Program-made: the position numbers and the translations under genes
Assembly: GCA_944386555.1 (NCBI GenBank)
Contig: CALXBN010000061.1
Location: 15,255 to 79,254, forward strand
Reading direction: 5' to 3'
From: an uncultured Ruthenibacterium sp.
GTDB taxonomy: Bacteria > Bacillota > Clostridia > Oscillospirales > Ruminococcaceae
Length of the DNA stretch: 64,000 nt
Shown: piece by piece, positions 30,590 through 56,520 of the stretch
Layout: each line of letters begins with the position of its first letter
Position numbering within the stretch: position 1 is the first letter of the stretch
Notes under the pieces: generated by a model
What the model was told of the DNA's origin: nothing
The model's database searches: none
The model's input: only the letters and a program-made list of their open reading frames with translations

Positions 30590-31663
30590 CTACACCCGCG
30601 CCGGGGCCGGGCCGGTGGAGCCGCGGACGATCAGCTGGGGCGTGTATTCGATCTTGTGCACGGCAGGCGTCTGGTCCTGGGCGTCGGGCTGGCTGTGCTG
30701 CACCACCATATCCACCGCCGAGCGGCAGCGCGTGTGCAGATGATGGTCAATGGTTGTCAGCGGCGGGGTGGTGACGGCGGCGGAGAAGATGTTGTCAAAC
30801 CCGCACACCGAATAATCCCGGGGCACCCGGCAGCCCTGGGCCTGCAGCTCGTTGAGAATGCCCAGGGCCGTCATGTCGTTCACGGCGATCAGCGCCGTGG
30901 CGCCGGTGCCCTGGCGCAGCAGCTCCCGGGTCAGCCGGCGGCCCACGGTGTACTCGTAGGGCATGCCGTCGCCCTGGGTGTCGGCCTCGGCCGTCTGGCG
31001 CTCCACCACCACCTCCAGCGCACCGGACAGCCCGTGGTTTTCCAGCTGCTTGCGGATGCCCTCCAGCCGCTGGCCGCGGGCCAGGGTCAGCTGGTTGAAA
31101 GGCGTGGAGAGGAAAGCCAGCCGCCGGTGGCCCAGCTGGTACAGGTGCTCGGCCAGCATGGCGCCGGCGGCCACATTGCTCAGCTCGATGGAGCAGATGG
31201 CCAGGTCGTCCTGCTTTTCGCCGATGATCACCACCGGGCAGGTGGCGTTGATCTGCTCGATCAAATGCGGGAAGCTGGGCAGGAACGTGTAGATGACGCC
31301 GTCCACATGGCTGCCCAGGAAGGTATCCAGGTAGAATTTTTCCAGATCCGGCTTGCGGAAGGTGTTGCACACGATGACCCGGTAGCCCAAAGAATCGGCA
31401 TAGTCCTCCACCGCCTGGATCAGCTCGGCGTAATACTGGTTGGTCAGCGTGGGCGTCAGCACCAGGATCATGCGGCTGGTCTTTTTGGCGGGCTGCTTTT
31501 TGCGGCGGGGCGGCAGGTAGTTCAGCTGCCGGGCTGCCGCCAGCACCCGCTCGCGGGTGGCATTGGAAAAAGAGATCTTTTCACTGTTGTTCAGAATCAG
31601 GGAGACGGTGGCTTGAGATACGCCCGCCAGGGCGGCCACATCCTGCGAGGTGGGCCTCTTCAT
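30590..31663 (-). CDS. LacI-family transcriptional regulator
   Basis: MKRPTSQDVAALAGVSQATVSLILN HTH; AVNDMTALG and SVCGFDN sugar-binding motifs. Confidence 0.93.
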   Translation of the reverse strand: MKRPTSQDVAALAGVSQATVSLILNNSEKISFSNATRERVLAAARQLNYLPPRRKKQPAKKTSRMILVLTPTLTNQYYAELIQAVEDYADSLGYRVIVCNTFRKPDLEKFYLDTFLGSHVDGVIYTFLPSFPHLIEQINATCPVVIIGEKQDDLAICSIELSNVAAGAMLAEHLYQLGHRRLAFLSTPFNQLTLARGQRLEGIRKQLENHGLSGALEVVVERQTAEADTQGDGMPYEYTVGRRLTRELLRQGTGATALIAVNDMTALGILNELQAQGCRVPRDYSVCGFDNIFSAAVTTPPLTTIDHHLHTRCRSAVDMVVQHSQPDAQDQTPAVHKIEYTPQLIVRGSTGPAPARV

Positions 31664-31782
31664 CGCTGACAGCTCCTTTAATAATAATTCTGCTAATATT
31701 ATACGGGAAAAACGGCCGGTTGTCAAACAAAATCACCAAATTTCAGGTGAATTATTTGGCAGAAAAGCGGGGCGCTTTGTTG

Positions 31783-31854
31783 TTGACAGCGGGCATTTTG
31801 CATGGTATGCTGTAGTTAAAGGCATTATTTATATTGAGATAATATTACTAATAA
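31783..31854 (+). promoter_or_regulatory. Promoter and candidate operator of the pfkB operon
   Basis: TTGACA-17-TGg TATGCT (31783-31811); palindrome TATTACTAATA at 31843-31853. Confidence 0.6.
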
Positions 31855-31890
31855 ATAAGCCCTTTCAAAAAGGGCGCCAGTAAAAAGGCG

Positions 31891-32907
31891 GTGAACCGGA
31901 TGGAGACAGTTCAAGATGCGAGGCTGCGGCAGAAAGGGTGCATTTTGGCCCTGGGCGAGCTGCTGGTGGACCTGATCCCCGGCAAGGAAGGCATGCGCAT
32001 CGACCAGGAGGGCCCGGTGATCAAAACGGCCAGCGGCTCGGCGGGTATTTTTGCCTGCGCGGCGGCGCTGCTGGGCGGCTGCGGGGCGTTTATCGGCAAG
32101 GTGGGCCGCGACAGCCTGTCCCGCATGGTGGTTTCCACCTTGCGCAGCCAGGGGGTGGACCTCAGCCGTCTGGTGGAATCGGCCAGCGGCCAGCTGGGGC
32201 TGGCCTTTTTGGAGTACCTGCCCGAGGGGCGCAACTACCAGTATTACCGCAAGAATTCCGTGGGCAGCACCCTGTGCGCCGACGACCTGGACGAGGCGTA
32301 CATCCGCAGCGCCTTCGCGGTGCACTTCCCCGGCATGCTGCTGGAGCTGACGCCCCAGATGGCCGGGGCCTGCCGGCGCCTGGTGGAGGTGGCCCGGGAC
32401 GCCGGGGTACTGGTGTCCTTTGACCCCAATATCCGCCGGGAGCTGAGTGCCGACGGCGAGGCGCGCCGCCGGCTGGACTGGGCGCTGGAGCATGCGGACG
32501 TGATCAAGCCCACCCTGGCCGAAGGGCAGGCCATCACCGGCAAGCGCACCGTGGGCGACGTGCTGCGGGCGCTGCACGCCATGGGCCCCCGGGTGGTGGC
32601 CATCAGCCGGGACAAGGACGGTGCGGTGATCAGCCGGGACGGCCAGGTAGCCGTGGCGGCGGGCATCGACGAGCCGGCCGTGGACCCCACCGGCGCAGGC
32701 GACACCTTTGCCGCCGCCCTGTGCGTGGGCCTGCGGGAAGAGATGCCCCTGGACCGGCTGGCCTGCTTCTGCAACTGCGCGGGCACGCTGGTCATCCGGC
32801 ACAAAGGGGCCATCGGCATGGCCCTGCCGGCCCGCAGCGAAGTGGAAGCGCTGATGGCCTCGGGCGCGTGCCGGGTGGAGCTGGCGGCCCTGGAGCAGCT
32901 GCCCTGA
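31891..32907 (+). CDS. PfkB-family sugar kinase
   Basis: LGELLVD, GSAGIFA, GKVGRD, FDPNIR, DPTGAGDTFAA. Confidence 0.9.
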   Translation: MNRMETVQDARLRQKGCILALGELLVDLIPGKEGMRIDQEGPVIKTASGSAGIFACAAALLGGCGAFIGKVGRDSLSRMVVSTLRSQGVDLSRLVESASGQLGLAFLEYLPEGRNYQYYRKNSVGSTLCADDLDEAYIRSAFAVHFPGMLLELTPQMAGACRRLVEVARDAGVLVSFDPNIRRELSADGEARRRLDWALEHADVIKPTLAEGQAITGKRTVGDVLRALHAMGPRVVAISRDKDGAVISRDGQVAVAAGIDEPAVDPTGAGDTFAAALCVGLREEMPLDRLACFCNCAGTLVIRHKGAIGMALPARSEVEALMASGACRVELAALEQLP

Positions 32908-32973
32908 GCAGGCTGCGGCGGGCCGGCGCCCGGGAAACGGAAATGAAACCACAGAAAAAAGGAGCGGTTTGCA

Positions 32974-33744
32974 ATGTTCAACGATTTGAAACAGCGCCTG
33001 CGGGCGGGCCGGCAGGTGCTGGGCACCATGGTTACCACCTTTGCCAGCCCGGATATTGCCCGGCTGCTGCAGAACAGCGGGTTCGATTTCTGCATGGTGG
33101 ACTGCGAGCACGGCGCCTTCACCACCAGGGAGGTTGCCAATATCATCGCCGAGGGCCGGGGCATCGGCTTCCCGGTGCTGGTGCGCATTCCGGAGCTGCG
33201 CCGGGAGCATGTGCTGAAATTCATGGAAATGGGCGCGGCGGGCCTGCTGCTGCCGGGCACCGAATCGGCCGGGCAGGCCCGGACGCTGGTGGATTGTGCC
33301 AAGTATGCGCCCCTGGGCCACCGGGGGGTGTCTTTGTCACGCCCGCACACCGATTTCCGGAAGGTGGACGGCCCGGCCTACATGGCCCGGGCCAACGACG
33401 AGACCCTTCTGCTGTGCCAGATCGAATCCCGGGCCGGGGTGGAGCATATCGAGGAGATTCTGGATGTGGAGGGAATCGACGCGGCGCTCATCGGCCCCAA
33501 CGACATGACCCAGGACTTCGGAATCCTGGACCAGTTCGATGACCCCGCCGTGACGGCGGCCTTTGAAAAGGTGATTGCCGCGGCTGCCGCCCGGGGCAAA
33601 TGGAGCGGCGTGCACTTCGGCAAGGCCGGGCCCCTGAAGCCCTGGCTGGGCCGCGGCATGCAGATGAATATGTGGAACAGCGACGCCGGCCTGCTGACAC
33701 TGGGGGCCACGGGCATCGCCCAGCTGAAGGAGGGCCAGGCATGA
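32974..33744 (+). CDS. HpcH/HpaI-family 2-keto-3-deoxy sugar-acid aldolase
   Basis: GFDFCMVDCEHG, LVRIP, PLGHRG, QIES..GVEHIEEI, IGPNDM. Confidence 0.88.
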   Translation: MFNDLKQRLRAGRQVLGTMVTTFASPDIARLLQNSGFDFCMVDCEHGAFTTREVANIIAEGRGIGFPVLVRIPELRREHVLKFMEMGAAGLLLPGTESAGQARTLVDCAKYAPLGHRGVSLSRPHTDFRKVDGPAYMARANDETLLLCQIESRAGVEHIEEILDVEGIDAALIGPNDMTQDFGILDQFDDPAVTAAFEKVIAAAAARGKWSGVHFGKAGPLKPWLGRGMQMNMWNSDAGLLTLGATGIAQLKEGQA

Positions 33745-34703
33745 AAATCGTGATTTTGGACGGCTATACCGAAAACCCCGGCGATTTGAGCTGGCAGGGC
33801 TTTGAGGCGCTGGGGGATGTGACCGTGTACGACCGCACCGCCTATGCGGACGGCGACGGGGAGATCCTTCGCAGGGCCAAGGGCGCCCAGGCGGTGCTGG
33901 TGAACAAGACGCCCCTGACGGCCCGCACCCTGGCCGCCCTGGCGCCGGAGCTGCAGTACATCGGCGTGCTGGCCACCGGGTACAACGTGGTGGACACCGC
34001 CGCAGCCCGGGCCGCCGGCGTGGATGTGTGCAACGTGCCCACCTACGGCACGGCCGCCGTGGCCCAGTACGCCATGGCCCTGCTGCTGGAGCTGTGCCAC
34101 CATGTGGGCGAGCACAGCCGCAGCGTCCGCGAAGGCGCCTGGGCCGCCTGCCCGGACTTCTGCTTCTGGAATTATCCGCTGGTGGAGCTGGCGGGCAAGA
34201 CCTTCGGCGTCATCGGCTACGGGCGCATCGGCCGGGCCGCGGCGCGGCTGGCGGCGGCCTTCGGCATGGAGGTGCTGGCCTGCGATACCCACGCCGCCGG
34301 GGACGACACCGCCCGCCTGGTGGACCTGGACACCCTGCTGGCCCGGGCCGACGCGGTGAGCCTGCATTGCCCGCTGCTGCCCGACACAAAAGAGATCATC
34401 CGGGCGGACACCATCGCCAAAATGAAGGACGGGGCGTTTTTGATCAACACCGCCCGGGGCCCGCTGGTGAACGAGGCCGACCTTGCGGCGGCCCTGGCCG
34501 CCGGCAAGCTGGGCGGCGCGGCGGTGGACGTGCTGTGCACCGAGCCCGCCAGGCCCGACTGCCCGCTGCTGGCGGCGCCCAACTGTATCGTCACACCCCA
34601 TATCGCCTGGGCCCCCCGGGAGAGCCGCCAGCGCCTGATGGACGTGGCGGTGGAAAACCTGCGGGCATGGGTGCAGGGCAGCAAACAGAATGTGGTGAAC
34701 TGA
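33741..34703 (+). CDS. D-2-hydroxyacid dehydrogenase (glycerate dehydrogenase-like)
   Basis: MKIVILDGYTENPGD, GVIGYGRIG, LINTARG, VDVL, TPHIAWA. Confidence 0.92.
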   Translation: MKIVILDGYTENPGDLSWQGFEALGDVTVYDRTAYADGDGEILRRAKGAQAVLVNKTPLTARTLAALAPELQYIGVLATGYNVVDTAAARAAGVDVCNVPTYGTAAVAQYAMALLLELCHHVGEHSRSVREGAWAACPDFCFWNYPLVELAGKTFGVIGYGRIGRAAARLAAAFGMEVLACDTHAAGDDTARLVDLDTLLARADAVSLHCPLLPDTKEIIRADTIAKMKDGAFLINTARGPLVNEADLAAALAAGKLGGAAVDVLCTEPARPDCPLLAAPNCIVTPHIAWAPRESRQRLMDVAVENLRAWVQGSKQNVVN

Positions 34704-34930
34704 TCCATCCGATTGCGCAGCGGCGCGGCAGGGCCGGCAGACGGCCGGCCGCCGCCCGCGCCGGAATCTTTTTCTCTCCTCCACGGAAAAAGCGCAGGCC
34801 AGGCCTGCGCTTTTTCTGTTGGGGCGGGCCGGGGCCCGGCGCAAAAAAGCGCGGCCGCCCGGTTCGGGACGGCCGCGTGCCGGCGGGCCCGCCGCTGCCA
34901 AAGGGGCAGGGCGGGCGGCTGCGCCGGGCG

Positions 34931-36070
34931 CTAAACGTCTGCCAGGGGCACGACGCGCTGCTGTTCGAAGGCGCGCAGGGCGCCGGTGAGCAGGCGGTGG
35001 CTCTCCAGGGCTTCGGCCGGGGTGAAGCAGCCGAATTCGCAGGGCAGGCCCCGCAGCTCGCTGACGAAGGCGGCAAACATCTGCAGAAGGGAATCGGAGA
35101 AGCCGAATTCGAAAATACCGCCGGTGATCACCGGGTACAGCGTTTTTTGCCCCACTACCAGCCGGGCCCAGGCCTGTTCGCGGCCCACGGCCTGGGTATA
35201 ATACACGGCGTTGGGGTCGTCGGTGGTAAACCGGGCCGACATCTGCAGCCCGTCGATCTCGTACTCCACGGTGTTGGTACAGCCCGGGGCCATGCGCTTC
35301 ATCTCAAAAGTCATGGGGAAGCGGTCGCCGGCGGCGCTTTCCCCCTGGCACAGCAGCAGGGCGTTGTCCCAGGTTTCACAGGGCACCGGGGCGCCGTCGG
35401 GGCCGGGGCGGGCCTTTACCAGGTTGGCCAGCTGGGCGCTTACCGCCACAGGGTGCAGCCCCAGCCGGAAGGGCAGGTGCTGGGTGTGGATGCCCAGGTC
35501 CCCCATGCAGCCGTAGTCGCCGTTGGCGGCCCGCTGGCGCTTCCAGTTGATGGGCTTGTTCAAATCCATGTCCGAGGAGTGCTTGATGGCAAAGCGGGCC
35601 TCGATGATCTGCCCGAAGGCCCCCTGGCGGTACCAGCGCACCATCTGCTGCACCGCCGGGTAGAAGGGGAACTCGCTGGCGCAGCGCACGAATACACCGG
35701 GGTGCCCGGCCATGGCGTCCAGGATCTGCCGGCAGGCAGCCAGGTCCATGCCGAAGGGCTTTTCCCCCAGCAGGTGCTTGCCCGCGCGGATGATGTCGGC
35801 GTACACCCGGCCGTGAAGGTGATGGGGCACCGCGCAGTACACGGCCTCCACGTCCGGGTCGGCCAGCAGCTCGCGGTAATCGGCATAGAAGTGCCGGCAC
35901 TCCGGCACCCGTTCAAACCAGCGGCGGTTGGCCTCGTTCAGGTCGCAGGCCGCCACGATCACCGGCCGGGGGATGTCCCCGGCCAGGTGCAGCCAGCGCA
36001 TGGAGGCGCTGGCAAATTCCCGGCCCATCAGCCCGCAGCCGATGACGCCGAACTGCACGGTATCCTTCAT
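34931..36070 (-). CDS. Gfo/Idh/MocA-family oxidoreductase
   Basis: FGVIGCGLMG Rossmann fold, GEKP, DLGIH. Confidence 0.9.
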   Translation of the reverse strand: MKDTVQFGVIGCGLMGREFASASMRWLHLAGDIPRPVIVAACDLNEANRRWFERVPECRHFYADYRELLADPDVEAVYCAVPHHLHGRVYADIIRAGKHLLGEKPFGMDLAACRQILDAMAGHPGVFVRCASEFPFYPAVQQMVRWYRQGAFGQIIEARFAIKHSSDMDLNKPINWKRQRAANGDYGCMGDLGIHTQHLPFRLGLHPVAVSAQLANLVKARPGPDGAPVPCETWDNALLLCQGESAAGDRFPMTFEMKRMAPGCTNTVEYEIDGLQMSARFTTDDPNAVYYTQAVGREQAWARLVVGQKTLYPVITGGIFEFGFSDSLLQMFAAFVSELRGLPCEFGCFTPAEALESHRLLTGALRAFEQQRVVPLADV

Positions 36071-37617
36071 GCGCCCGCCTCCTTTTCCAGCCGCTGCAGC
36101 TCTTCCTCAAACAGGGCCAGCAGGCGGTCGGCCATGGCCTCGCTGGTGATCAGCGGAAGCTTGGTCAGCGCCACCGGCGGGCAGTTGGGCTTATAGGTTT
36201 GGGCGCTGATGTCCACGCACCGCCGGTTCATGGCCTGGCAGAAGGCCGCCGCGTGGGCCACATCGGCAAAGCTCAGGGCCGTCATGTGGCCGTCCCCCTC
36301 CACGCCGGCGCACACTGCCGGGTGCCGGGCGGCCAGGGCCGCGGCCCCCGCGTGGTAGTGCCGGCCCACGGCTTCCATGGCGGGGCCGTTGGCCGCCAGG
36401 AATTCCATGGTGACCAGATAGGCAAGGCTGGCCAATTCTTCCTGGCCGTTGGTCACCAGGGCGCCGAACTGGGTCAGGCTGTCGAAGGCGCCGCTGGCCA
36501 GCAGGCGGCTGGCGGGATAGCACCCCCCGGGGAAGCCCTTGCCTGCGGAGACGAAATCCGGTGCAAGGCCGTATTTGCGGAACAAAAACAGCCCGTCGTA
36601 CCATGCGCAGGACTGGATCTCGTCGCACAGCACCGGCGTGTCGCTGGCGCGGCAGGCCGCGTAAGCCGCCTGCAGGTACTCTTTTGTCAGCACAATGCCG
36701 CCGTAGTTCATCAAAATGATCTCGTGGCAGAAGCCGGCGGTTTTGTACGGGCCCCGGTTCCAGGTCTCGATGGCTGCCCGGAAGGCGCCGGCGTCGTTGA
36801 TGGGCACGCCCACCACCTTGTACAGGCCCGCGTCGCCGGCTTTGCGGGCGAAGTCCGGCCACAGGCCCCGCAGGGTCTGGGCAATGACGGTGGTGCCGTG
36901 GTAGTTGCCCGCGGGGCCGCCGGCGTTGTCGGCAATCACCAGGAACACCGGGATCCTGCCCCGGTACGGGCAGGGTTTGCCGTCGATCTCATAGAACCGG
37001 GCCAGCATCATCTTCAGCGCAGCCTCCACCGCCAGCGAGCCGGTCTCCAGGTTGATCACGCAGCTCAGCACGCCGGGCTTTTTGGCCGCCAGCACTTCTT
37101 CCAGGGCGGGGTCGTCAGGGGCCAGGCCGTTGGCAGCGGCGATGAGCCGGCGCTCCAAAAGGCGGGTGATGTAGCCCCTGGTATTGTTGTGGGTGGCGTT
37201 GGGGATGCCCAGGGCCTTGGCATTTTCGATAAGGCTGTAGCCGGGGAAGCCGTGGCCCAGGGGGATGTGGTAGTGTTCGCTTTTTCCGGCGAAGTACAGG
37301 CGGCCGTCCTCGCCCACGCGGAAGGCGCCCAGCCCCCCCAGGGGCGCGGCGGCGCTGTGCTGGGCCGCCCGGTATGAGCCGGTGGGCGCGCCGTCCAGGC
37401 TGTCGGCGAAAGGCGGAACGACCTGCTGGCCCACCCGGGCCATCAGGGCCTCCTGGCGATGGGCGAAGGGGGCGGGGTAGAAGTCCACCGCCTGGCGGGC
37501 AATGGCCTCAAATTCCCCGATGGGCCGGCCGGTGAGGGCGGCCCGGGCCGCGCACACGGCGGCCAGGTATTCCTCACCCAGCAGGTCGGCCAAAGAACGG
37601 CGGATGGTTTCAATCAT
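36067..37617 (-). CDS. Class III PLP-dependent aminotransferase-fold protein (divergent, long N-terminus)
   Basis: ETGSLAVEAALK, YHGTT, LCDEIQS and SAGKG (PLP lysine). Confidence 0.8.
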   Translation of the reverse strand: MIETIRRSLADLLGEEYLAAVCAARAALTGRPIGEFEAIARQAVDFYPAPFAHRQEALMARVGQQVVPPFADSLDGAPTGSYRAAQHSAAAPLGGLGAFRVGEDGRLYFAGKSEHYHIPLGHGFPGYSLIENAKALGIPNATHNNTRGYITRLLERRLIAAANGLAPDDPALEEVLAAKKPGVLSCVINLETGSLAVEAALKMMLARFYEIDGKPCPYRGRIPVFLVIADNAGGPAGNYHGTTVIAQTLRGLWPDFARKAGDAGLYKVVGVPINDAGAFRAAIETWNRGPYKTAGFCHEIILMNYGGIVLTKEYLQAAYAACRASDTPVLCDEIQSCAWYDGLFLFRKYGLAPDFVSAGKGFPGGCYPASRLLASGAFDSLTQFGALVTNGQEELASLAYLVTMEFLAANGPAMEAVGRHYHAGAAALAARHPAVCAGVEGDGHMTALSFADVAHAAAFCQAMNRRCVDISAQTYKPNCPPVALTKLPLITSEAMADRLLALFEEELQRLEKEAGA

Positions 37618-37663: not shown

Positions 37664-39055
37664 TTATACGGCGGTAAATTCAATGCCCAGCATACGGCAC
37701 AGCAAACGGATGCGGTGCTCCCGGTCGCCGGGCACGATCACCTCGTGGTGGGTGCCGCCGGCGTTCAGCCAGGCTGTTACGCAGGGCTGTACGCCGCTGT
37801 CCGGCGCAAAGAACAGGTAGGGCATATCGCAGGCGGCCAGGCTGCAGTCGTCCAGGATGCGCCCGCCGGCGTACACCAGGCGGAAACCGCCGTCCAGGTA
37901 GGCCAGGCTCATCACTGCGGCCGGGCCGGGGGCGGGGGTGAAGATGGGCGTGGGCGGGTTGGAAAGCCCGCCCTCCAGGAACACCCGGTCCATCAGGAAA
38001 GGCTTTTTGTCCGGCCGGCACAGGGCCCAGTTGCCCTCGCCGGCGTGGCACAGCAGGATGGCGCCGCGGGCAAAGTCCATCATGTACATCTCGCTGAAAT
38101 CGCACGGGCCGCACAGGCGCGTCATGGCGGCCATCCACAGCGCGGCGGTGGCGTCGCCCTCGGCGGCATAGCCGTAGCCGTCGGCCATCAGGTTCGAGGC
38201 CGCCAGCAGCGGCAGCTGGGAGAAGCGGCCGTCGGCGCCGAACTCCTCGAAATGGGCGGTGTAGCCCGCGTAGCCGCCGGCCTCCAGGTAGGCTTTCAGC
38301 CCCAGGTACATGCGCACGGCCTCGGCGTGGCGGGCTTCGGGCATGGCGGGGTCGATGTCGAACACGGTGCGCTCATAGGCCATGCGCCGGGCAATGTCCT
38401 CCCCGGACACGGCGGCGCAGTGCTTTTGCACCGTGCCGATGGAATCGTACACGAATTCCGCGCCCAGCTGGCGGTACACGGCCAAATCATCCGTCACCAC
38501 GTCGCCCATGCCCGCCAGCCGGCCGATGACGCCGATGCGCATGGAGCGCAGCGCGGTGCGGGTGGCCGCGGCGGCGGCAAAATCCGCCACAAAGGCGGCC
38601 AGGCCGCCGCCCTCCTTGGGCCCGGCGTAGTAAGCGCAGGGGATGCGGGCCCTGGCCAGGGCGTTGGCGCAGTCCTGGCTGCCGTGGATGGCCTGGTTCA
38701 CCGTCAGCTCCAGCTCGCCGAAGGCCGGGGTGGCCGTCTCATCGGGCTGCACCAGGGCCAGGGCCAGGGGCAGGTGGTTGTGCTGCAGGGCGTGGGCCAG
38801 GTACTGCCCCTGGGCGTAGCTGAGCAGCAGGATCAGGATGCCGTCCTGCCCCTCGGCGTTGAACCGGGCCACCAGCCGGTCCATCTGGGCGGCGTTCACC
38901 GCCGGGCCGGGGAAGGTGAAGCTGGCGGCGCCGGAAAGACGCTCCAGCAGGCGGCTGACATAATCCGTCTGGCGGCGGGTGATGCCCGGGAACAGCGGCT
39001 CGTAGCCCTCCAGCATCAGCGCCAGCACGCCCAGGCGGGGTTTGGTGTTTTCCAT
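37664..39055 (-). CDS. L-fucose/L-arabinose isomerase-family protein
   Basis: HGSQD, YTAHFE, GYAAEGD, SEMY, LCHAGEG, GGTHHEV motifs. Confidence 0.82.
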   Translation of the reverse strand: MENTKPRLGVLALMLEGYEPLFPGITRRQTDYVSRLLERLSGAASFTFPGPAVNAAQMDRLVARFNAEGQDGILILLLSYAQGQYLAHALQHNHLPLALALVQPDETATPAFGELELTVNQAIHGSQDCANALARARIPCAYYAGPKEGGGLAAFVADFAAAAATRTALRSMRIGVIGRLAGMGDVVTDDLAVYRQLGAEFVYDSIGTVQKHCAAVSGEDIARRMAYERTVFDIDPAMPEARHAEAVRMYLGLKAYLEAGGYAGYTAHFEEFGADGRFSQLPLLAASNLMADGYGYAAEGDATAALWMAAMTRLCGPCDFSEMYMMDFARGAILLCHAGEGNWALCRPDKKPFLMDRVFLEGGLSNPPTPIFTPAPGPAAVMSLAYLDGGFRLVYAGGRILDDCSLAACDMPYLFFAPDSGVQPCVTAWLNAGGTHHEVIVPGDREHRIRLLCRMLGIEFTAV

Positions 39056-42649: not shown

Positions 42650-42808
42650 AAAATGACCTCCCGTCACGGCGGCGCTGCATCCGGCCCGGGGGCTGGGCAT
42701 ACATATACAGCAGGCCTCGCCGGCGCACGCCGCTAATAACTTAAATATTAGTATTTTTATTGTGCAAATTTACTAAACAGAAACCACTATTTTTGGAGGG
42801 AAAAAGCC

Positions 42809-42837
42809 TTGACGCGTTTAGAAAATGCTGTTATAGT
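42809..42837 (+). promoter_or_regulatory. Promoter of the ABC/hydrolase operon
   Basis: TTGACG-17-TGt TATAGT. Confidence 0.6.
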
Positions 42838-42893: not shown

Positions 42894-42965
42894 GAGTCCG
42901 AATTGAAATTTTAACTAAAAATGTGAAAATAAATTACTAATAATTTGGAAGGGCGGGGATGTTAT

Positions 42966-43934: not shown

Positions 43935-43950
43935 AAGGGGGAACGGTGCC

Positions 43951-46742: not shown

Positions 46743-46806
46743 GGAATAGATGCGAATCACACATCGTAAAAAATGGATAAAACAATCACAAGGAGGTTCA
46801 ACACCC

Positions 46807-49120: not shown

Positions 49121-50035
49121 ATGCAATACGCAAATTTTCCCGGCACACAGCTGAATGTGAGCAAGGTGTGCCTGGGCACCATGACCTTCGGCAGCCCCGT
49201 GGCCGAAGCCGACGCCGTTGCCCTGGTGCACCGCGCGATGGATGTGTGCGGCATCAACTTCATTGATACCGCCAATATGTACGAGGGATACAACCGCACT
49301 GCGGGCAGCGCCGGCGGCGTGGCCGAGGAGATCGTGGGAAAAGCCGTGAAAGGCCGGCGGCACGAATGGGTTGTTGCCACCAAAGTGGGGATGAAAGTGG
49401 GCGCCGCCCCCGAGGATGAGAACACCAGCCCCGCTGCCATCCGCACCCAGCTGCGCCGCAGCCTGGCGCGCCTGGGCACCGACTATGTGGATCTTTACTA
49501 CCTGCACCGGTACGACCCGGACACCCCGCCGGCGCTGATTGCCCGGGCCATGGGCGAGGAACTGCGGGCCGGCACCATCCGCGCCTGGGGCGTCAGCAAT
49601 TACTCGGCCGCGCAGCTGCGGGCCCTGCTGGACGCCGCGAAGGAGGAAAACGTGCCCGGCCCCTGCGCCTGCCAGCCGCCTTTGAGCATGGTGAACACCG
49701 CCGCCCTGGCGGACCTGCTGCCCCTGTGCGCGGCCGAAGGCATCGGCGTGGTGCCCTATCAGATCCTGCAGGGGGGCATGCTTACCGGCAAATACCGCCG
49801 GGGCCAGGCGGCCCCCGCGGGCAGCCGCCTGGCGGAAAAGCCCGATTGGATGAAGCCCTTTACCGACGAAGTGTACAATGCCATCGACGCCTGTGCCGCC
49901 GGCGCCGCAGCCGAGGGGGTCACCATGACCCAGTATGCCCTGCGCTGGGCGCTGCGCCAGCCCGGGGTGGTCAGCGCCCTCATCGGCGTCAAGCGCGCCG
50001 CCCAGCTGGACGAGGCAGCCGCGGCGCCGGGCTGA
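49121..50035 (+). CDS. Aldo/keto reductase
   Basis: CLGTMTFG, IDTANMY, ATK, DLYYLHR, GVSN. Confidence 0.92.
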   Translation: MQYANFPGTQLNVSKVCLGTMTFGSPVAEADAVALVHRAMDVCGINFIDTANMYEGYNRTAGSAGGVAEEIVGKAVKGRRHEWVVATKVGMKVGAAPEDENTSPAAIRTQLRRSLARLGTDYVDLYYLHRYDPDTPPALIARAMGEELRAGTIRAWGVSNYSAAQLRALLDAAKEENVPGPCACQPPLSMVNTAALADLLPLCAAEGIGVVPYQILQGGMLTGKYRRGQAAPAGSRLAEKPDWMKPFTDEVYNAIDACAAGAAAEGVTMTQYALRWALRQPGVVSALIGVKRAAQLDEAAAAPG

Positions 50036-50074
50036 CCTGCGCGGGCCGGCCCCGCGCCGAAAGGAGGTATCCCC

Positions 50075-51874
50075 ATGGACGCCTGGAGACAGCAGGCAAT
50101 CCCTTATCAGGGCGGCTTTACCCAGACCGTGGCCTACCGCCCGGCCCGTCAGCCGGGCTTTGTGGCCTGGGCCGGTGTGTTCACGTACGAGGACGGCACG
50201 GTGGGCGTCAGTTTTGACGAGATCACCCCCGAGCCGGACCCGGCCTTTACCCCTCCCAAACTGGAGTACGCCGAGGCCGCCGGCGTGCCGGTGTCCTACT
50301 GCTCGGTGGAGGCCGGGGACGCCCGCCAGCGCCCCTGGCGGGTGTACCTGCGCACGGCGGACGGCGTGCACTTCACCCGGACCGGGCGCTGCCCCCGCGC
50401 CCAGGGGGGCCTGTGCGGTGCGGGTTTTGCAAACGGGCGCATCGTGAGCTACGATGTGCCCCGGCGAAACGCCGCAGGCACCGGCTGGTGCGATTTCATT
50501 GCCGTGCGCCAAAGCACCGACGGCGGCAATACCTTTACCGAGGCGGCGCGCCTGCTGGAGGGCTGTGCGCCCTACCTGTGGCGGGTGCGCCGCTTGCCCG
50601 ACGGGCGGGTGATCCTGCTGGCCAGCCTGTACGGCACGCCCTGGGGCCCTGGGCTGCCCCGGCCCACCCGCAATACCCAGCTGCCCGGCGAAACGTATAC
50701 CGGCAAGATCCAAACGTTTTTCATGATCAGCGGGGACGGCGTGCATTTCGACGGCCCCCACTATATCCTGCCCGGCATCGGCGCCCACGAATACGATGTG
50801 GCGCCCCTGCCGGGAGGGCGGCTGCTGTTTGTGGCGGGGGACGTGCAGGGCACGCCGGCGGGCCGGCAGATCGTCTCTCCCGCCGCCGGCGGCGGGTGGG
50901 TGAACGGCCCGCTGCTGCCCATCGGCCAGGGCGCCCCTGCCGACCCGGCGGCCGACCCCCAGGGCGGCTTTGTGCCCGAGACCATCGCCTGGGATGCCCG
51001 CCAGGGCTGCCTGGTGGGCTACCGGCGCAACCGGTGCCTGTCGATTTCCAACGATGAAGGGGCCAACTGGGTGCCGGTGGCTCCGCCTTCCGGCGCCCAG
51101 CCGCTGTACCAGCCGGTGCTGACAGCCCTGCCGGACGGCGCGCTGCTGCTGGCGGGCCATGTGGGGGGCGACACGGCCTTCGGCCAGGGTACACCCACCA
51201 TTGTGTGCTGGCGCATGGAGATGGACTGCGCCGGGGCCCTGCCCGCCCCCACCGCCCTTTCACTGCAGCGCCTGGCCGAAGGCGGCGGATACCGCAATGC
51301 GTTCCGGGCCGTGCTGCGCAGCGGCGGCCGCCCCCTGGCAGGCCGCCCCGTGGAGTTCCGGTTCACCCCCTACTGGCGGGCGGACGGCACGGTGAACACC
51401 ACCCCCCAGGACAGCGCGCCGTACAGGGTGCAGGCCGTCACCGGCGCGGACGGCGCCGCGGTAGGCCGGGCACCGTGGTTCGACGGCGTGGGGGACATCC
51501 ACCTGGCCTACAACGCCGACGCGGTGTTCCCCGGCGCGCCCGACGCCCGGGCCTGCGGCAGCCCGCTGATGACCGTACTGGCCCTGACGCCCCGGCGCGC
51601 GTGCGAATACCCTTACGATGCCTATTTCGCCGGCGGCGTTTTGTATCTCTCGCCGGCATTCCTGGCCGATTATCCCGGCGCTGCGGCCCTGCTGCAGGGG
51701 GCGCTGGGCCAAAGCGGGCCGCCCGCGGCCCTGCCTGCGGCGGCCCTGGCGCGCCTGGCGGCCTGCGGCGTGGTGCACCGGACGCCGGAGGGCTGGCGCT
51801 GGATCGCCAGCGTCCACGCGCCCCGGGCCCTGGACGGCGTGCAGCCCATGGCCCAGGGCGACTGGTACGGCTGA
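50075..51874 (+). CDS. Asp-box (BNR) beta-propeller protein, sialidase-like, with a C-terminal Ig-like region
   Basis: Asp-boxes TADGVHF, STDGGNTF, SGDGVHF and SNDEGANW; no FRIP motif; no signal peptide. Confidence 0.68.
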   Translation: MDAWRQQAIPYQGGFTQTVAYRPARQPGFVAWAGVFTYEDGTVGVSFDEITPEPDPAFTPPKLEYAEAAGVPVSYCSVEAGDARQRPWRVYLRTADGVHFTRTGRCPRAQGGLCGAGFANGRIVSYDVPRRNAAGTGWCDFIAVRQSTDGGNTFTEAARLLEGCAPYLWRVRRLPDGRVILLASLYGTPWGPGLPRPTRNTQLPGETYTGKIQTFFMISGDGVHFDGPHYILPGIGAHEYDVAPLPGGRLLFVAGDVQGTPAGRQIVSPAAGGGWVNGPLLPIGQGAPADPAADPQGGFVPETIAWDARQGCLVGYRRNRCLSISNDEGANWVPVAPPSGAQPLYQPVLTALPDGALLLAGHVGGDTAFGQGTPTIVCWRMEMDCAGALPAPTALSLQRLAEGGGYRNAFRAVLRSGGRPLAGRPVEFRFTPYWRADGTVNTTPQDSAPYRVQAVTGADGAAVGRAPWFDGVGDIHLAYNADAVFPGAPDARACGSPLMTVLALTPRRACEYPYDAYFAGGVLYLSPAFLADYPGAAALLQGALGQSGPPAALPAAALARLAACGVVHRTPEGWRWIASVHAPRALDGVQPMAQGDWYG

Positions 51875-51938: not shown

Positions 51939-53369
51939 ATGAATTACGGCGTTACCATTACAAACGGGGCGGTGCCCTGGCAGATCTTCCAGCAGGGGCC
52001 GGACGGCACCGCGCCCATCTGCCTGGAGGGGGAATACCATCTGGTCCGCCTGTCCCAGGAGCTGCCGCTGGCCTTTTCTGCGGTGCCCGATGCGCCGGCC
52101 GTCGTAAAGGCCCGGGTGGCCCTGGAGAGCACCGGCGAATCGGTGATCCCCTGGACGGCCTGTGAGATCCCCGCGCCAGGCCGCTGGCGGGTATGTTTTC
52201 CGGCGGTGCCCGCCGGCGGGCCCTATCGCATCGAGACCTATATGGACTACGAGGGCTGGGACGGCCTGTCCTGCACCCGGGGGGACATGGTGCACAACAT
52301 CGGCGTGGGGGATGTGTTTGTCATTGCCGGCCAAAGCAACGCCGCCGGCCGGGCCAAGGGCCCGGTGAGCGACGAACCCTGTCTGGCGGTGCATGTGCTG
52401 CGCCCCAGCGGCGTGTGGGACCTGGCCACCCACCCCCTGGGCGAGACCACCGGTGCGGTGCATGTGGGCAATTATGAAAACCACAACCCCGGCCACAGCC
52501 CCTGGCTGCACTTTGCCAAGCTGCTGCACCGCGCGCTGGGCTATCCCATCGGCCTGGTGCCGGCGGCCTACGGCGGCGCGCCGCTGCGCTGGTGGAACCC
52601 GGCGGAGAACGGCGCGCTGACGGACAACCTGCTGGCCATGCTGGCCGATTATAACCTGCACCCCAAAGCGGTGCTGTGGGTGCAGGGCGAGGCCGAGGGC
52701 TACGAAAACAGCGCCGAAACGTATCTGGCGCGCTTTGCCGCCTTTGTGCAGGCGCTGCGCGGGAAGCTGGCCCAGCCGGACCTGCCCTTCATCACCGTAC
52801 AGATCAACCGCTGCATGGAGGGCCCCACCGACGCGCTGGACCGCCAGTGGGGCCTGGTGCGCCAGGCCCAGCGCCAGGCGGCGCGGGAGATCCCCGGCGT
52901 GTGCGTGGTGCCTTCGGCGGACCTGGCCCTCTACGATTTCATCCACAATGCCGCCCAGGGCAACCTGGTGGTGGGCGAGCGCTGCGCCCGGGCGGCCCTG
53001 GCGCTGCTGTACGGCCGCAAAGAGGCGGACTGGCAGGCCCCCGAACCCGCCGGCGCCGTGCAGACGGCCCCGGACACAGTGGTGCTGACCCTCCGCCCCG
53101 TTTACAACTGGGTGAACAGCTTCGGCGTGCCCGCCCCGCTGCTGCCCTTCGACGCCGAAGACGCCCAGGGCCTGGTGCACCCCGTGGCCTATGCCGACGG
53201 AACGGACACTGTCACCCTCACCTTTCCCCGGCCCCTGGGCCCCGGTGCGGTGCTGCACGGGGCCTGGCGCATGAACCCCGGCCCCTGCATCCCCTGCGAC
53301 TGCATGCGCCTGCCCATGCTCAGCTTCTACGGCTTTCCCATCACACCGCTGAAAGGAGAGAGGACATGA
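51939..53369 (+). CDS. Sialate O-acetylesterase (SASA) domain protein
   Basis: GDVFVIAGQSNA (catalytic Ser), WVQGEAE and DFIH motifs of SGNH/SASA esterases. Confidence 0.85.
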   Translation: MNYGVTITNGAVPWQIFQQGPDGTAPICLEGEYHLVRLSQELPLAFSAVPDAPAVVKARVALESTGESVIPWTACEIPAPGRWRVCFPAVPAGGPYRIETYMDYEGWDGLSCTRGDMVHNIGVGDVFVIAGQSNAAGRAKGPVSDEPCLAVHVLRPSGVWDLATHPLGETTGAVHVGNYENHNPGHSPWLHFAKLLHRALGYPIGLVPAAYGGAPLRWWNPAENGALTDNLLAMLADYNLHPKAVLWVQGEAEGYENSAETYLARFAAFVQALRGKLAQPDLPFITVQINRCMEGPTDALDRQWGLVRQAQRQAAREIPGVCVVPSADLALYDFIHNAAQGNLVVGERCARAALALLYGRKEADWQAPEPAGAVQTAPDTVVLTLRPVYNWVNSFGVPAPLLPFDAEDAQGLVHPVAYADGTDTVTLTFPRPLGPGAVLHGAWRMNPGPCIPCDCMRLPMLSFYGFPITPLKGERT

Positions 53370-55480
53370 ACCGGCGCCGCCCTTGCCGCCCCTCTGAACA
53401 GGGGTGGGACCCCTTCGCCTATATTTTCCGCTTCTGCTGCGACCCGGGCTTCAACGACGAGGCGGAGATTGCCGCCCTGCGGGAGTATGTGCAGTGTGCA
53501 GACGTGGACGACGTGGCGGTGTTCGCCAATGTGGAAGAGCTGAACACCGGCCACATGGAGGCGGCGGAGCAGGACGTGTATGTGGACCTGGTGCGCCGGG
53601 TGCAGCAGGCCCTGGCGCCGCTGGGCGTCAGCGTATCGGTAAACCAGTGGCACAGCGTGATGCACGCCGACCTGGGCAAGGTCCTGCCCGAAAGCCAGCC
53701 GTTCCGGCCCATGGTGGATGTGAACGGCCGGGCGGCGCGCCTGTGCGTATGCCCGCTGTGTGAAACCTGGCAGGCCTACATCGCCGCCCTGTACGCCCGC
53801 TACGCCGCGCTGGAGCCCTCCATTTTGTGGGTGGAGGACGACTTCCGCCTGCACAACCACGAGCCCCTGGCCTGGGGCGGATGCTTTTGCGAGGAGCACA
53901 TGCGCCTGTACAGCGCCCGGGCCGGCAAGCGGCTGACGCGGGAGGAATTCATCCGGGGGGTGCTGCAGCCCGGGCCGCCCCACCCCTACCGGAAGATCTG
54001 GCTGGATGTGAGCCGGGAGACCATGCTGTGCGCCGCCCGGGCCATCGGCGGCGCGGTGCGGGCTGTTTCCGCCGCGGCCCGGGTGGGGCTGATGAGCTCG
54101 GCGCCCCATGTGCACTGTGCCGAAGGGCGGGACTGGCCCGCCCTGGTGAACGCCCTGGCCGCCGGCGCGGCCCCGGTGGACCGCATCCACCTGCCCGGCT
54201 ACCAGGAACAGGCCCCCGGGGCCTATCTGCAGGGCTTCCACATGGTATCCATGCTGACCCGGGCCATGCTGCCTGCGGACACCCAGGTGTATCCGGAACT
54301 GGAGAACTACCCCTTCTCCCTGTACGCCAAGTCCCGCCGGTTCACACGGTTCCAGCTCATCAGCAGCCTGGCGCTGGCCCCCGCGGGCATCACCATCGAC
54401 CTGTACGACCTCAACGGCAACGGCATCGTCTGGCAGGACGGCTACCAGGATATGCTGCGCCAGGTGAAGCCGTTCCTGAACGCCGCCGTATCCACAGGCC
54501 GGCTGGCGGGCCGGCGGCTGGGCGTGCAGGTGCTGTACAGCCCCGATGCCTCCTACCACCTGCACACCGCCGCCGGCCGGCACATGGAGGAACTGTACCC
54601 CCAGGAGGTGTTCTGGGCCGGGCTGCTGGGGGCCATGGGCGTGCCTTTCGCCTACTGCAGCAGCCCCGCCGCCCTGCGCGGCCAGGTGGCCGCCGCCAGC
54701 GGCCAGGCTTTGCGCAACTGGGACGCCCGAACCCTGGAGGCGCTGTTCCGAAACAACGTTGTGCTTCTGACGGGCGATGCCGCCGACACCCTGTGCCAGA
54801 TGGGCCTGGGGCACCTGGCGGGCATGGAAAGCCTGCGCTGGATGACCCAGAACGAGGGCGAATACACCTTCGAACAGGCTGAGGACGGGCGCGTTTACAC
54901 CGGCCGGCCCCGTGCCCGGGCATCGGCGGTGATCTCCGCCGCCGATGCGGCGCACATCACCTATCTGCCCGGCGCACAGGTGGAGGTGCGCACCGCCTTC
55001 TACGATTCCTTCCGCCGCCGCCGGGCCCCGGCCCAGGCGGTGGTGGAAGGCCGGGTGCTGGTGTATCCCTTCGGCCATTTCGAGGGGCCGCTGGCCATTC
55101 CGCCCATGCTGCTGAGCCACATGCGTGCCCAGGTGCTGCACGGGATGCTGGCGGACGCTGGCTTTGCCGCGCCTCTGGCCCAGGGCGGGCCCTACCTGGC
55201 CGCCTACGCCTTTGAGGGGGCAGAGGGGGCCTTGGCCCTGTACCTGGTAAACGGCGCGCTGGACGGCGTCAGGGATATCCGCCTGGCCGGCGCGCCCGCC
55301 GGGCCGGTGACGGTGCTGTGCAGCGCCCGGCCCGAAGAAGGCCCCCGGCCGGCAGCGGTAGGCCCCGACGGCCGGCTGGAACCGCCGCTGGCCCTGCCGG
55401 CGCTGGAGGGCGCCCTTATCTGCTGGGGCGCGCCCGGGCAGGCCGCACAAGAAAAAGAGAAGGAAGGACAGAGCGTATGA
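53366..55480 (+). CDS. Uncharacterised glycoside-hydrolase-like protein (TIM barrel plus GH42-like C-terminal domain)
   Basis: 704 aa; CPLC, WVEDDFRLHNH, GCFCEEHM, YPELENYP; operonic coupling (ATGA overlaps) on both sides. Confidence 0.55.
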   Translation: MNRRRPCRPSEQGWDPFAYIFRFCCDPGFNDEAEIAALREYVQCADVDDVAVFANVEELNTGHMEAAEQDVYVDLVRRVQQALAPLGVSVSVNQWHSVMHADLGKVLPESQPFRPMVDVNGRAARLCVCPLCETWQAYIAALYARYAALEPSILWVEDDFRLHNHEPLAWGGCFCEEHMRLYSARAGKRLTREEFIRGVLQPGPPHPYRKIWLDVSRETMLCAARAIGGAVRAVSAAARVGLMSSAPHVHCAEGRDWPALVNALAAGAAPVDRIHLPGYQEQAPGAYLQGFHMVSMLTRAMLPADTQVYPELENYPFSLYAKSRRFTRFQLISSLALAPAGITIDLYDLNGNGIVWQDGYQDMLRQVKPFLNAAVSTGRLAGRRLGVQVLYSPDASYHLHTAAGRHMEELYPQEVFWAGLLGAMGVPFAYCSSPAALRGQVAAASGQALRNWDARTLEALFRNNVVLLTGDAADTLCQMGLGHLAGMESLRWMTQNEGEYTFEQAEDGRVYTGRPRARASAVISAADAAHITYLPGAQVEVRTAFYDSFRRRRAPAQAVVEGRVLVYPFGHFEGPLAIPPMLLSHMRAQVLHGMLADAGFAAPLAQGGPYLAAYAFEGAEGALALYLVNGALDGVRDIRLAGAPAGPVTVLCSARPEEGPRPAAVGPDGRLEPPLALPALEGALICWGAPGQAAQEKEKEGQSV

Positions 55481-56520
55481 AAGGGACAATCATTGACCGC
55501 AAATGGGTAGTGGAATGGTTCGACGAGCGCCAGTGCTACCATATGCCCAGCCTGACCATGGCCCCCAACGGCAACCTGGTGGCCGTTTGGAACGGCGGCT
55601 TTTTGCAGTGGAACGGCGACCCCATGGGCCGGGACGCCAAGGACTGGGTCTCCGTGCTGGCGCCGGGCGCCGGTGCCTGGAGCAGCCCCGACGCCGTGGG
55701 CTGCGATATCCGCTATTGCTGCCACGACCCCGTGTTCATCAAAAACAGAAAGGGCGAAATCATCCTGCTGTTTGCAAAATTCCTGGACACCGAGGTGAAC
55801 TTCGCCACCTGGTGCAACGGCAGGGACGAGCTGTGGCAGCGCAAAAGCTGCGACGGCGGCGTCACCTGGCAGCCGGCGCGGCCCGCGGGCATCCAAAGCG
55901 GCCACGCCAGCAACGACAGCGTGCTGCTGGCCGACGGCACCATCGTGCTGGCTTCCACCTCCAGCGAGCTGCCGGACAAGTACTTCGGCGCGGTGCGCAT
56001 CTATATCTCCCGCGACGACGGCGAAACCTGGGAAAAAGGCCCCATCCTGGCGGCAGACGACGGCAACCTGATCCGCGAACCGGCGCTGTGCCTGCGCCCG
56101 GACGGGGTGATCCGCCTGTTCACCCGCACCTGCCCGGGCAGCACGGGCTGGGGCGCGGGCATCGGCGCCCTTCCCAGCTACACCGCCGAAAGCCGCGACG
56201 GCGGGCGCACCTGGACCCAGCCGCGCCCGGCGGGCATTTTGAACAACGAATCCAAGATTGATGTGATCAGCTGGGACGAGCGCACCATCCTGATGGCTTA
56301 CAACGATACGCCCGTGTCCGACTGGCACGAGCGCAGCCCGCTGACCCTGGCCGCCAGCACCGACGAGGGGCGCACCTGGCACAATGTGCTGGAGCTGGCC
56401 CCCGCGCCGGGCAACAAATGCCAGCCCGCCATGTGCAAGGGCCCCGACGGCAACCTGCACGTCATCTATATGCACCGCCACACCGCCATCGAGCATCTGG
56501 TGGTGAAGCTGGAGGACTGA
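55477..56520 (+). CDS. BNR_2 / exo-alpha-sialidase-like beta-propeller protein
   Basis: Asp-boxes SCDGGVTW, SRDDGETW, SRDGGRTW and STDEGRTW; RSPLT; YHMP in place of FRIP. Confidence 0.78.
   Translation: MKGTIIDRKWVVEWFDERQCYHMPSLTMAPNGNLVAVWNGGFLQWNGDPMGRDAKDWVSVLAPGAGAWSSPDAVGCDIRYCCHDPVFIKNRKGEIILLFAKFLDTEVNFATWCNGRDELWQRKSCDGGVTWQPARPAGIQSGHASNDSVLLADGTIVLASTSSELPDKYFGAVRIYISRDDGETWEKGPILAADDGNLIREPALCLRPDGVIRLFTRTCPGSTGWGAGIGALPSYTAESRDGGRTWTQPRPAGILNNESKIDVISWDERTILMAYNDTPVSDWHERSPLTLAASTDEGRTWHNVLELAPAPGNKCQPAMCKGPDGNLHVIYMHRHTAIEHLVVKLED

Follow-up and report, generated by a model that had tools for sequence, protein, structure and literature searches.

A co-inherited gene island of Ruthenibacterium and other bacteria with a probable role in the catabolism of an amine-bearing acidic glycoside

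Introduction

What does a bacterium degrade with a gene cluster that resembles the sialic-acid (nan) catabolic clusters in part only? The question is raised by a stretch of 64,000 nucleotides from an uncultured Ruthenibacterium species (assembly GCA_944386555.1, contig CALXBN010000061.1, positions 15,255 to 79,254; hereafter the window), which holds at positions 30590–56520 an island composed of a LacI-family repressor gene and a six-gene operon on the minus strand, and operons of three and ten genes on the plus strand. An original prediction, made from the sequence of the window, had listed the genes of this island and assigned them to the breakdown of a sugar acid other than N-acetylneuraminic acid (Neu5Ac), such as legionaminic or pseudaminic acid, or of an aminocyclitol-containing compound. 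Reading frames of the window were picked by third-position guanine-cytosine (GC) content and scanned against Pfam and NCBIfam, and every gene on that list was found in its place, with slight corrections to the start codons.

From the gene content, folds, motifs, co-inheritance and shared candidate operator set out below, we infer a substrate class and each chemical step of a route. The island is probably a single LacI-type regulon by which an amine-bearing, acidic, O-acetylated glycoside is taken up and broken down completely in the cytoplasm; most likely, this substrate is a piece of a glycan from a microbial cell envelope or exopolysaccharide rather than host Neu5Ac. Bacterial amino-sugar acids are common on microbial surfaces, and we found in the literature no catabolic route for most of them (legionaminic, pseudaminic and amino-uronic acids, and partly de-N-acetylated polymers); the island, compact and strictly co-inherited, may encode such a route. 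It includes two enzyme families without a Pfam match, thousands of metagenomic sequences fall into some of its protein clusters, and a transaminase-based removal of sugar amines would be new, if true. The substrate question is directly testable because there is a cultured carrier, Ruthenibacterium lactatiformans 585-1 (DSM 100348; locus L005), and, with the inducer identified, the repressor and its candidate operator could be used as a sensor.

Co-inheritance of the island genes

The marker gene of the island (50075–51874) encodes a 599-residue (599-aa) protein whose model shows a sialidase-fold propeller of six blades, followed by a beta-sandwich/helical domain at the C terminus. Loci with this gene were searched for in one genome per species, and gene calls in loci outside the window are rough. 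The search returned 54 loci from Clostridia and Actinobacteria, and a tblastn matrix shows the island genes clustered around the propeller in differing orders in Oscillospiraceae, Christensenellaceae, Lachnospiraceae, Propionibacteriaceae and Microbacterium.

Co-inheritance is close to complete at the genome level. A DegT/DnrJ/EryC1-family pyridoxal-phosphate (PLP) aminotransferase (DegT, 46750–48036) has a single-copy ortholog, 63–95% identical, in 41 of 42 propeller-bearing genomes, and an atypical class-III PLP enzyme (36067–37617; longest frame to 37683) has a single ortholog in 39 of the 42. Each is single-copy also in genomes where physical linkage is lost: some genomes have the island set split over two loci, and wherever DegT lies more than 10 kb from the propeller, exactly one close ortholog is found elsewhere in the same genome. 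Within the genus of the window, which contains R. lactatiformans, the propeller occurs in 6 of 37 genomes; DegT is found in five of these six and in none of the other 31. Another 400 genomes sampled from the phylum gave no propeller match. The island is a rare, patchily distributed accessory island.

DegT is the most conserved of the island proteins. The Microbacterium protein (L076:214–1461) and that of the window (46807–48036) are 75% identical, and neighbouring island proteins are 46–58% identical; such high identity across phyla points to either horizontal transfer or an unusually strong constraint. By GC content the island does not stand out as foreign DNA, the values being 62% for the genome from which the window comes, about 65% for the window on average, and 62–71% in 5-kb windows across the island.

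Three transcription units with a shared candidate operator

The repressor gene (30590–31663) encodes a protein matching the Pfam LacI helix-turn-helix (HTH) and Peripla_BP_1/3 domains, and its longest open reading frame (ORF) spans 30590–31726. A sigma-70-type promoter with a perfect 12 of 12 match (TTGACA-17-TATAAT; 31726–31698, minus strand) falls inside this ORF, so that the likely start is ATG 31663. Promoter-like sites, also identified by sequence match, are present for both plus-strand operons: a TG-extended TTGACA-17-TATGCT (31783–31811) for the operon that begins with a PfkB-family kinase gene, and TTGACG-17-TATAGT (42809–42837) for the operon of ATP-binding cassette (ABC) transporter and enzyme genes. 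The minus-strand operon ends at a strong terminator (34850–34877, minus strand) with an 11-bp stem that includes 10 GC pairs. Within the long plus-strand operon, which extends over 13.6 kb from two permease genes to a gene for a BNR_2 propeller, no strong internal signal was found. These promoters and the terminator fit three transcription units.

The palindrome TATTA(C/G)TAATA occurs twice in the window, against 0.01 sites expected, and both sites stand before operons: candidate operator O1, a perfect palindrome (TATTACTAATA; 31843–31853), lies 38 bp upstream of PfkB, and candidate operator O2 (AATTACTAATA; 42932–42942) lies directly upstream of the first permease gene. The palindrome recurs at equivalent intergenic positions of about 30 orthologous loci. 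It is kept in the spacer between permease and Gfo/Idh/MocA oxidoreductase (Gfo) genes in about 25 of them, often in two copies, and five loci (L020, L021, L026, L044 and L045) have it in front of PfkB or between LacI and PfkB; across 51 sites the core T-T-A-(C/G)-T-A-A is nearly invariant. LacI itself co-occurs with the island in 14 loci. Phylogenetic footprinting thus supports a shared candidate operator, and LacI is its presumptive binder: as in a LacI regulon, a regulator with an HTH and a periplasmic-binding-protein fold accompanies a palindrome shared by the target promoters. LacI would repress all three operons through this palindrome until a pathway sugar binds to the repressor. Co-occurrence, re-clustering and the shared palindrome uphold the initial view that the three operons and LacI are inherited together as one unit and are probably regulated together; within the limits of sequence evidence, the palindrome footprint speaks for co-regulation.

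Predicted uptake and processing in the cytoplasm

A 579-aa lipoprotein solute-binding protein (44948–46687; LplA-like in size, weak SBP_bac_1 match), whose lipoprotein signal and lipobox LLASC can be read from the translation, would import a di- or oligosaccharide together with two CUT1-type ABC permeases (42945–44871). The Pfam and NCBIfam scans, on which the assignments below rest unless stated otherwise, found no ABC ATPase gene within the island, and a shared MsmK-type ATPase encoded elsewhere is assumed. A SASA/CE6-type O-acetylesterase (51939–53369), which has the GQSN active-site motif, would then strip O-acetyl groups in the cytoplasm, and the glycosidic bonds would be cut in the same compartment by two sialidase-fold propellers and a protein of glycoside hydrolase family 42 (GH42) fold. 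No N-terminal signal sequence could be read from the translations of these last three proteins, which are accordingly predicted to be cytoplasmic.

The 599-aa propeller has no Pfam or NCBIfam match and no PDB sequence match at E<=1; of its hundreds of close relatives, a few are named 'sialidase family protein' by NCBI. An AlphaFold model built from 15 relatives (mean predicted local distance difference test score, pLDDT, 82) matches bacterial GH33 sialidases, the Pseudomonas aeruginosa pseudaminidase, fungal KDNases and GH93 arabinanases in Foldseek (1e-12 to 1e-9), at identities of 12–16%. With these enzymes it shares the six-bladed propeller and Asp-boxes; unlike them it is predicted to be cytoplasmic and lacks the arginine of the sialidase RIP motif. 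The second propeller (55477–56520; 347 aa) scores 112 bits to Pfam BNR_2 and has weak PDB sequence matches, which are driven by its Asp-boxes. Asp-boxes of the form SxDGGxTW are found in both propellers, and in a profile-profile alignment of the two the blades are out of register.

The third protein, of about 700 aa (53366–55480), is likewise without Pfam, NCBIfam or PDB sequence matches (the last at E<=1). Its model (pLDDT 83) superposes over the full length on GH42 beta-galactosidases (template-modelling score about 0.6; Foldseek E 1e-19 to 1e-17) and has their three-domain architecture of TIM barrel, trimerisation domain and beta-sandwich; further down the list stand GH151 and GH35-type exo-glucosaminidases. 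It differs from the GH42 enzymes in its low identity (12–16%), the missing Pfam match and its predicted cytoplasmic location. Invariant residues include Glu157 (strand 153–157), Glu311/Glu313 (strand 311–313) and a Cys/His cluster, and Glu157 and Glu311/313 would be equivalent to the GH42 catalytic pair. The family comprises more than 750 clusters, some with 3,000–8,000 members, and its named relatives are 'hypothetical', with no Pfam domain in any member listed. We regard it as a candidate new glycoside hydrolase family. What had been predicted as a GH-like protein has thus gained a full-length GH42-type fold, in the model, and no sequence match to any family.

The released 3-deoxy-2-ulosonic (sialic-acid-like) acid would be split into pyruvate and an amino-aldose by a NanA-like class I pyruvate lyase of the DHDPS family (48150–49070). 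The closest solved relatives of this enzyme are structures of Escherichia coli NanA (1e-35), and alignment to the latter shows that it keeps K165, Y137, T48, D191 and E192, and so the Schiff-base lysine, the catalytic tyrosine and the GxDE motif of N-acetylneuraminate lyase (NAL) type; position 208 is Thr. The same residue pattern is found in 30 island orthologs, which include a divergent type only about 32% identical.

Predicted removal of amines and back-end enzymes

Amines would be removed by transamination and not by NagA/NagB chemistry; DegT would attack a ring carbon, and a second amine would fall to the class-III enzyme. DegT scores 294.7 bits to its family hidden Markov model and has its PLP-binding lysine in FHAAK (motif FSFHAAK); the class-III enzyme has an aminotransferase fold, an N-terminal extension of about 100 aa, the sequence DEIQSCAWYDG and a PLP-binding lysine in SAGKGFPGG. 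Two Gfo oxidoreductases, A (41510–42700; IolG-like) and B (34931–36070; nearest to levoglucosan and scyllo-inositol dehydrogenases), and an aldo-keto reductase (AKR; 49121–50035) would reduce the resulting keto and aldehyde groups. The same two families, Gfo/Idh/MocA and DegT, are paired in amino-sugar biosynthesis, as in WbpB/WbpE, NtdC/NtdA and the PseC/LegC steps, where they interconvert a sugar hydroxyl, keto group and amine. Unlike those pairs, the island enzymes stand in a LacI-controlled import and catabolic context without nucleotide-sugar genes: no nucleotidyltransferase, dehydratase or glycosyltransferase gene was found within the island by the family scans.

The neutral aldose would be isomerised by an AraA-like aldose-ketose isomerase (37664–39055), phosphorylated by a xylulokinase-like FGGY kinase (39152–40657; 274 bits against a cut-off of 380) and cleaved to triose phosphates by a class II ketose-bisphosphate aldolase of the FBA/GatY/KbaY family (40654–41493); Microbacterium has a DeoC/LacD-type aldolase in place of the last. 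The isomerase matches the central and C-terminal AraA domains only, with no match to the N-terminal domain and 115 bits against a cut-off of 622. Isomerase, FGGY kinase and aldolase follow one another by the same logic, and come from the same superfamilies, as in the routes for L-arabinose, L-fucose and L-rhamnose; the island differs from these in the FBA/GatY type of its aldolase (not AraD, FucA or RhaD), in the missing AraA N-terminal match, and in that its module is always joined to the class-III PLP enzyme and Gfo enzymes. A second branch, for a 2-keto-3-deoxy acid, would run through a PfkB-family sugar or sugar-acid kinase (31891–32907), an HpcH/HpaI-family class II pyruvate aldolase (32974–33744) and a D-2-hydroxyacid dehydrogenase of glycerate/glyoxylate type (33741–34703) to pyruvate and glycerate or glycolate. 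The models closest to the kinase are tagatose kinase, IolC and 2-keto-3-deoxygluconate/2-keto-3-deoxygalactonate (KDG/KDGal) kinase, all below cut-off.

The original prediction had named a match to a characterised pathway as a finding that would refute it. No characterised counterpart was found in the family libraries or in the literature on catabolism of nonulosonic acids and 3-deoxy-D-manno-octulosonic acid (Kdo), on clusters of sialidase-like and aminotransferase genes, or on degradation of legionaminic and pseudaminic acids.

Points of doubt and the likely substrate

Several observations weigh against the assignments just given. In the lyase, Ser47 is replaced by Gly, giving GGTGD where NanA has GSTGE; nearly all orthologs share GGTGD, and one has GGTGE. 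Residue 50 is reported to control Kdn specificity in a Sphingobacterium aldolase (PMC10017367); the Asp of GGTGD is given no weight here. Its scores are 153 bits against a cut-off of 281 for NF003164 and 141.5 against 382 for TIGR00683. Because the residues are kept and the scores fall below both equivalog cut-offs, we class the protein, by sequence, as a NanA-subfamily enzyme that is not demonstrably a Neu5Ac lyase. Residue 26 of the 599-aa propeller, which precedes an invariant PGF, varies among Arg, Gln, His and Ser and is Gln in the window, and the 347-aa propeller reads YHMPSL where sialidases read YRIPSL, a difference kept in nine Clostridia orthologs. Both propellers are thus without the first arginine of the sialidase triad, and the label of ulosonic-acid glycosidase is therefore weaker: of the two Asp-box propellers predicted at the outset, the sialidase-type fold, the Asp-boxes and the BNR_2 match stand and the proposed role is diminished, and it is less than clear that they act on a carboxylate-bearing ulosonic acid glycoside. 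With 52 bits to Pfam and racemases among its PDB neighbours, the class-III enzyme is highly divergent and may not be a transaminase. The candidate operator lacks the CG centre of classical LacI operators, and the roles given to PfkB, HpcH and the 2-hydroxyacid dehydrogenase are guesses.

With these points taken into account, we take seriously as substrate, if short of calling it probable, an amino-sugar acid of bacterial or archaeal glycans that has a free amine or is partly N-deacetylated. Within that class, a nonulosonic acid of legionaminic or pseudaminic type seems to us rather unlikely. The two aminotransferases and the NanA-like lyase fit the earlier proposal of such a substrate, and the missing sialidase arginines do not. 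Legionaminic and pseudaminic acids, moreover, are di-N-acylated and would therefore need an N-deacetylase, and none was found in the island of the window's own genome; amidohydrolases of NagA type appear only in actinobacterial versions. It is no more than speculation that a bacterial, non-sialic amino-sugar acid (of legionaminic/pseudaminic type, or another free-amine ulosonic or uronic acid) could have in this island its first catabolic pathway, in which transaminases would replace deacetylase and deaminase and the 599-aa propeller and the GH42-fold protein would perform the first committed steps.

Alternative substrates

The best-surviving alternative divides the enzymes between two moieties. 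The imported compound would be a di- or oligosaccharide of an acidic sugar and a hexosamine (galactosamine (GalN)/N-acetylgalactosamine (GalNAc)- or glucosamine (GlcN)-type, partly N-deacetylated), derived from teichuronic acid, Pel- or poly-N-acetylglucosamine (PNAG)-like polymers or de-N-acetylated, O-acetylated peptidoglycan. DegT, lyase, AKR and Gfo A would degrade the acidic or amino-acid-like sugar, and the class-III enzyme, Gfo B, the AraA-like isomerase, FGGY and the GatY-like aldolase would take the hexosamine, by non-phosphorylative transamination, to a tagatose- or fructose-type ketose phosphate. We consider this a tentative option, somewhat stronger than a legionaminic- or pseudaminic-type acid and weaker than the free-amine class as a whole. 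Its main attraction lies in the actinobacterial islands: all six loci with enough flank add NagA (244 bits, over the cut-off) and an SIS-domain sugar-amine-6-phosphate deaminase, and three of them also hold a LacC/1-phosphofructokinase (1-PFK)-type kinase, a GatY-like aldolase, a DeoR regulator and an alanine dehydrogenase, which together make an Aga-type route for N-acetylhexosamine (HexNAc) 6-phosphate. The Aga pathway for GalNAc and GalN, which consists of AgaA/NagA, AgaS, tagatose-6-phosphate kinase and GatY/KbaY aldolase, likewise converts a hexosamine into a ketose phosphate that is cleaved by a class II ketose-bisphosphate aldolase.

An N-acetyltransferase of the AAC(3) (Antibiotic_NAT) family is a further island member, found in 12 loci of Christensenellaceae type and Propionibacteriaceae (L080:12720–13667 and L078:2076–3050; also L030, L034, L036, L039, L040, L044, L045, L048, L052 and L055), 53% identical across phyla and placed usually after AKR or near the class-III enzyme. 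It would fit the acetylation of free-amine hexosamine residues, and a GlcN N-acetyltransferase is known from cell-wall recycling in Clostridium acetobutylicum. Also in keeping with a hexosamine moiety are an APH-type (NahK/AmgK-like) kinase within the island in L018 and L021/L075, with a nucleotidyltransferase and an epimerase in L021/L075, the exo-beta-D-glucosaminidases among the fold neighbours of the GH42-fold protein, the tagatose kinase model that is the best match of PfkB, and the GatY/KbaY-like class of the aldolase. The link from the Aga-like genes to the core is indirect, however. They cannot be taken as replacements for the class-III/AraA-like/FGGY module, which the same genomes keep a few kb away, and they are therefore additions. 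The window itself has no deacetylase, N-acetyltransferase or SIS gene, and the acetyltransferase is absent from its whole genome; unlike in the Aga pathway, deamination would there be left to transaminases on unphosphorylated sugars, followed by the AraA-like isomerase and FGGY. The NAL-type GxDE motif of the lyase, for its part, suggests a long polyol tail. Together, the accessory genes suggest free amino groups on the substrate or its intermediates, HexNAc as a co-product, and, from the alanine dehydrogenase of some island versions, transaminases that run in the deaminating direction with alanine recycled.

An alternative route for host sialic acids (Neu5Ac, N-glycolylneuraminic acid (Neu5Gc), their O-acetylated forms or 2-keto-3-deoxynononic acid (Kdn)) that bypasses NanK and NanE is improbable, although the genome of the window gives it some footing. 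The original statement that the island has no nanK, nanE, nagA or nagB is correct by the Pfam and NCBIfam scans. Elsewhere in the same genome, which is 93% complete, nagA, nagB and, on other contigs, ROK kinases are present, and neither NanE (PF04131) nor the AGE epimerase (PF07221) has a match anywhere. The island lyase is the only NanA-like gene of this genome, a second match having proved to be dapA, which adjoins dapB and asd. The island also supplies a SASA esterase and sialidase-fold proteins. Ruthenibacterium is a gut genus, and use of sialic acid has been reported for its type species (PMC8461474, PMC7547075).

Against this stands the situation in R. lactatiformans and a Gemmiger genome, both of which carry the island and, elsewhere, a second and better-scoring NanA. 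In R. lactatiformans the second NanA belongs to a cluster on a separate contig with an RpiR regulator, a GDSL esterase, a 454-aa binding protein and permeases, which is consistent with a report of the ST6 system in this species (PMC8461474) and is absent from the window's own genome. The island is therefore additional to a canonical sialic-acid system, in agreement with the expectation that it is distinct from known Neu5Ac catabolism. Known nan clusters, including that of Ruminococcus gnavus for 2,7-anhydro-Neu5Ac, comprise an ABC importer with binding protein, NanOx, NanA, NanK, NanE and an esterase. The island resembles them in its binding-protein-dependent importer, cytoplasmic processing, NanA-subfamily lyase, O-acetylesterase, Gfo/Idh/MocA enzymes and sialidase-fold proteins. 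It differs, beyond the missing Nan and Nag genes, in a LacI regulator in place of RpiR or GntR, a binding protein of 579 aa (its counterpart in the nan cluster of this genus has 454 aa), and propellers without the RIP arginine. Its Gfo enzymes, compared with solved structures, do not resemble NanOx: neither matches NanOx/YjhC at E<1e-8. Its core includes two near-universally co-inherited aminotransferases, which have no role in the breakdown of Neu5Ac or Kdn, and its carriers extend to groundwater and soil bacteria (HGW-Firmicutes, Microbacterium and Propionicimonas).

Still less probable is the catabolism of an aminocyclitol glycoside, an inosamine- or aminoglycoside-like pseudo-oligosaccharide, with DegT and Gfo acting by way of an inosose and ring opening yielding deoxy-keto acids for an IolC-like kinase, an IolJ-like aldolase and pyruvate aldolases. 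This proposal, also made at the outset, has a little support from family labels: among PDB entries, DegT aligns best over its full length with one labelled glutamine-scyllo-inositol transaminase, with good scores also for 2-deoxy-scyllo-inosose aminotransferases; both Gfo enzymes match IolG or scyllo-inositol dehydrogenases; and IolC is the second-best model for PfkB. The AAC(3)-like genes of the 12 loci point the same way, AAC(3)-family enzymes being known to act on the aminocyclitol ring of aminoglycosides, and aminoglycoside 6'-transaminases are another group with the class-III fold. What it lacks, unlike iol catabolism, is the ring-opening chemistry: no IolE dehydratase, IolD hydrolase, IolB isomerase or other ring-opening enzyme was recognised within the island, which holds only IolG-, IolC- and IolJ-like families that score far below cut-off. 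The lyase, moreover, resembles NanA and no cyclitol-pathway enzyme, and substrate abundance counts against the proposal, as we know of no aminocyclitol glycoside that is abundant across gut, rumen and groundwater.

The idea that unrelated sugar operons stand beside a LacI gene by chance, to which the different strands, the separate promoters and the two-locus genomes might lend some colour, is scarcely tenable, being already contradicted by the near-perfect genome-level co-occurrence, the re-clustering of the genes in several different orders and the conserved candidate operator shared by all units.

Island borders and neighbouring genes

The predicted limits of the island, 30590–56520, hold because the flanking genes of the window are never conserved with the island in the tblastn matrix of propeller-bearing loci. 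Upstream (21475–30478) lie an M20 peptidase, a complete Opp/Dpp-type peptide ABC transporter and an EamA exporter, and downstream a short-chain dehydrogenase/reductase, an epimerase and a two-component system. Within these limits the likely starts, judged from ribosome-binding sites and ortholog lengths, were corrected to 48150 (lyase), 51939 (SASA esterase), 55477 (BNR_2 propeller), 37617 (class-III enzyme) and 31663 (LacI).

Other lineages have further genes in or beside the island. A trio resembling the NahK/AmgK-MurU salvage enzymes (an APH-type sugar-1-kinase, a nucleotidyltransferase and a nucleoside-diphosphate-sugar epimerase) lies inside the island in L021/L075 (L075:14875–17956); L018 (11926–13005) has the kinase only, and in the genome of the window such a trio is found on another contig, C47, around 8.7–10.7 kb. 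At the edge of one actinobacterial island, after the alanine dehydrogenase gene, there is a Cthe_2159-family beta-helix protein, carbohydrate-binding or lyase-like (L046:13111–14412), which could be an extracellular enzyme that makes the imported fragment. Islands of Christensenellaceae type encode after LacI a multi-pass membrane protein of about 300 aa with a weak DUF624 match (L074:15087–15989, L080:7564–8439 and L018:10969–11880) that has no counterpart in the window. Finally, a ThrE/ThrE_2 pair, a putative amino-acid exporter that is not beside the island in the window, abuts it in two lineages (L001:17780–19019 and L075:20462–21733).

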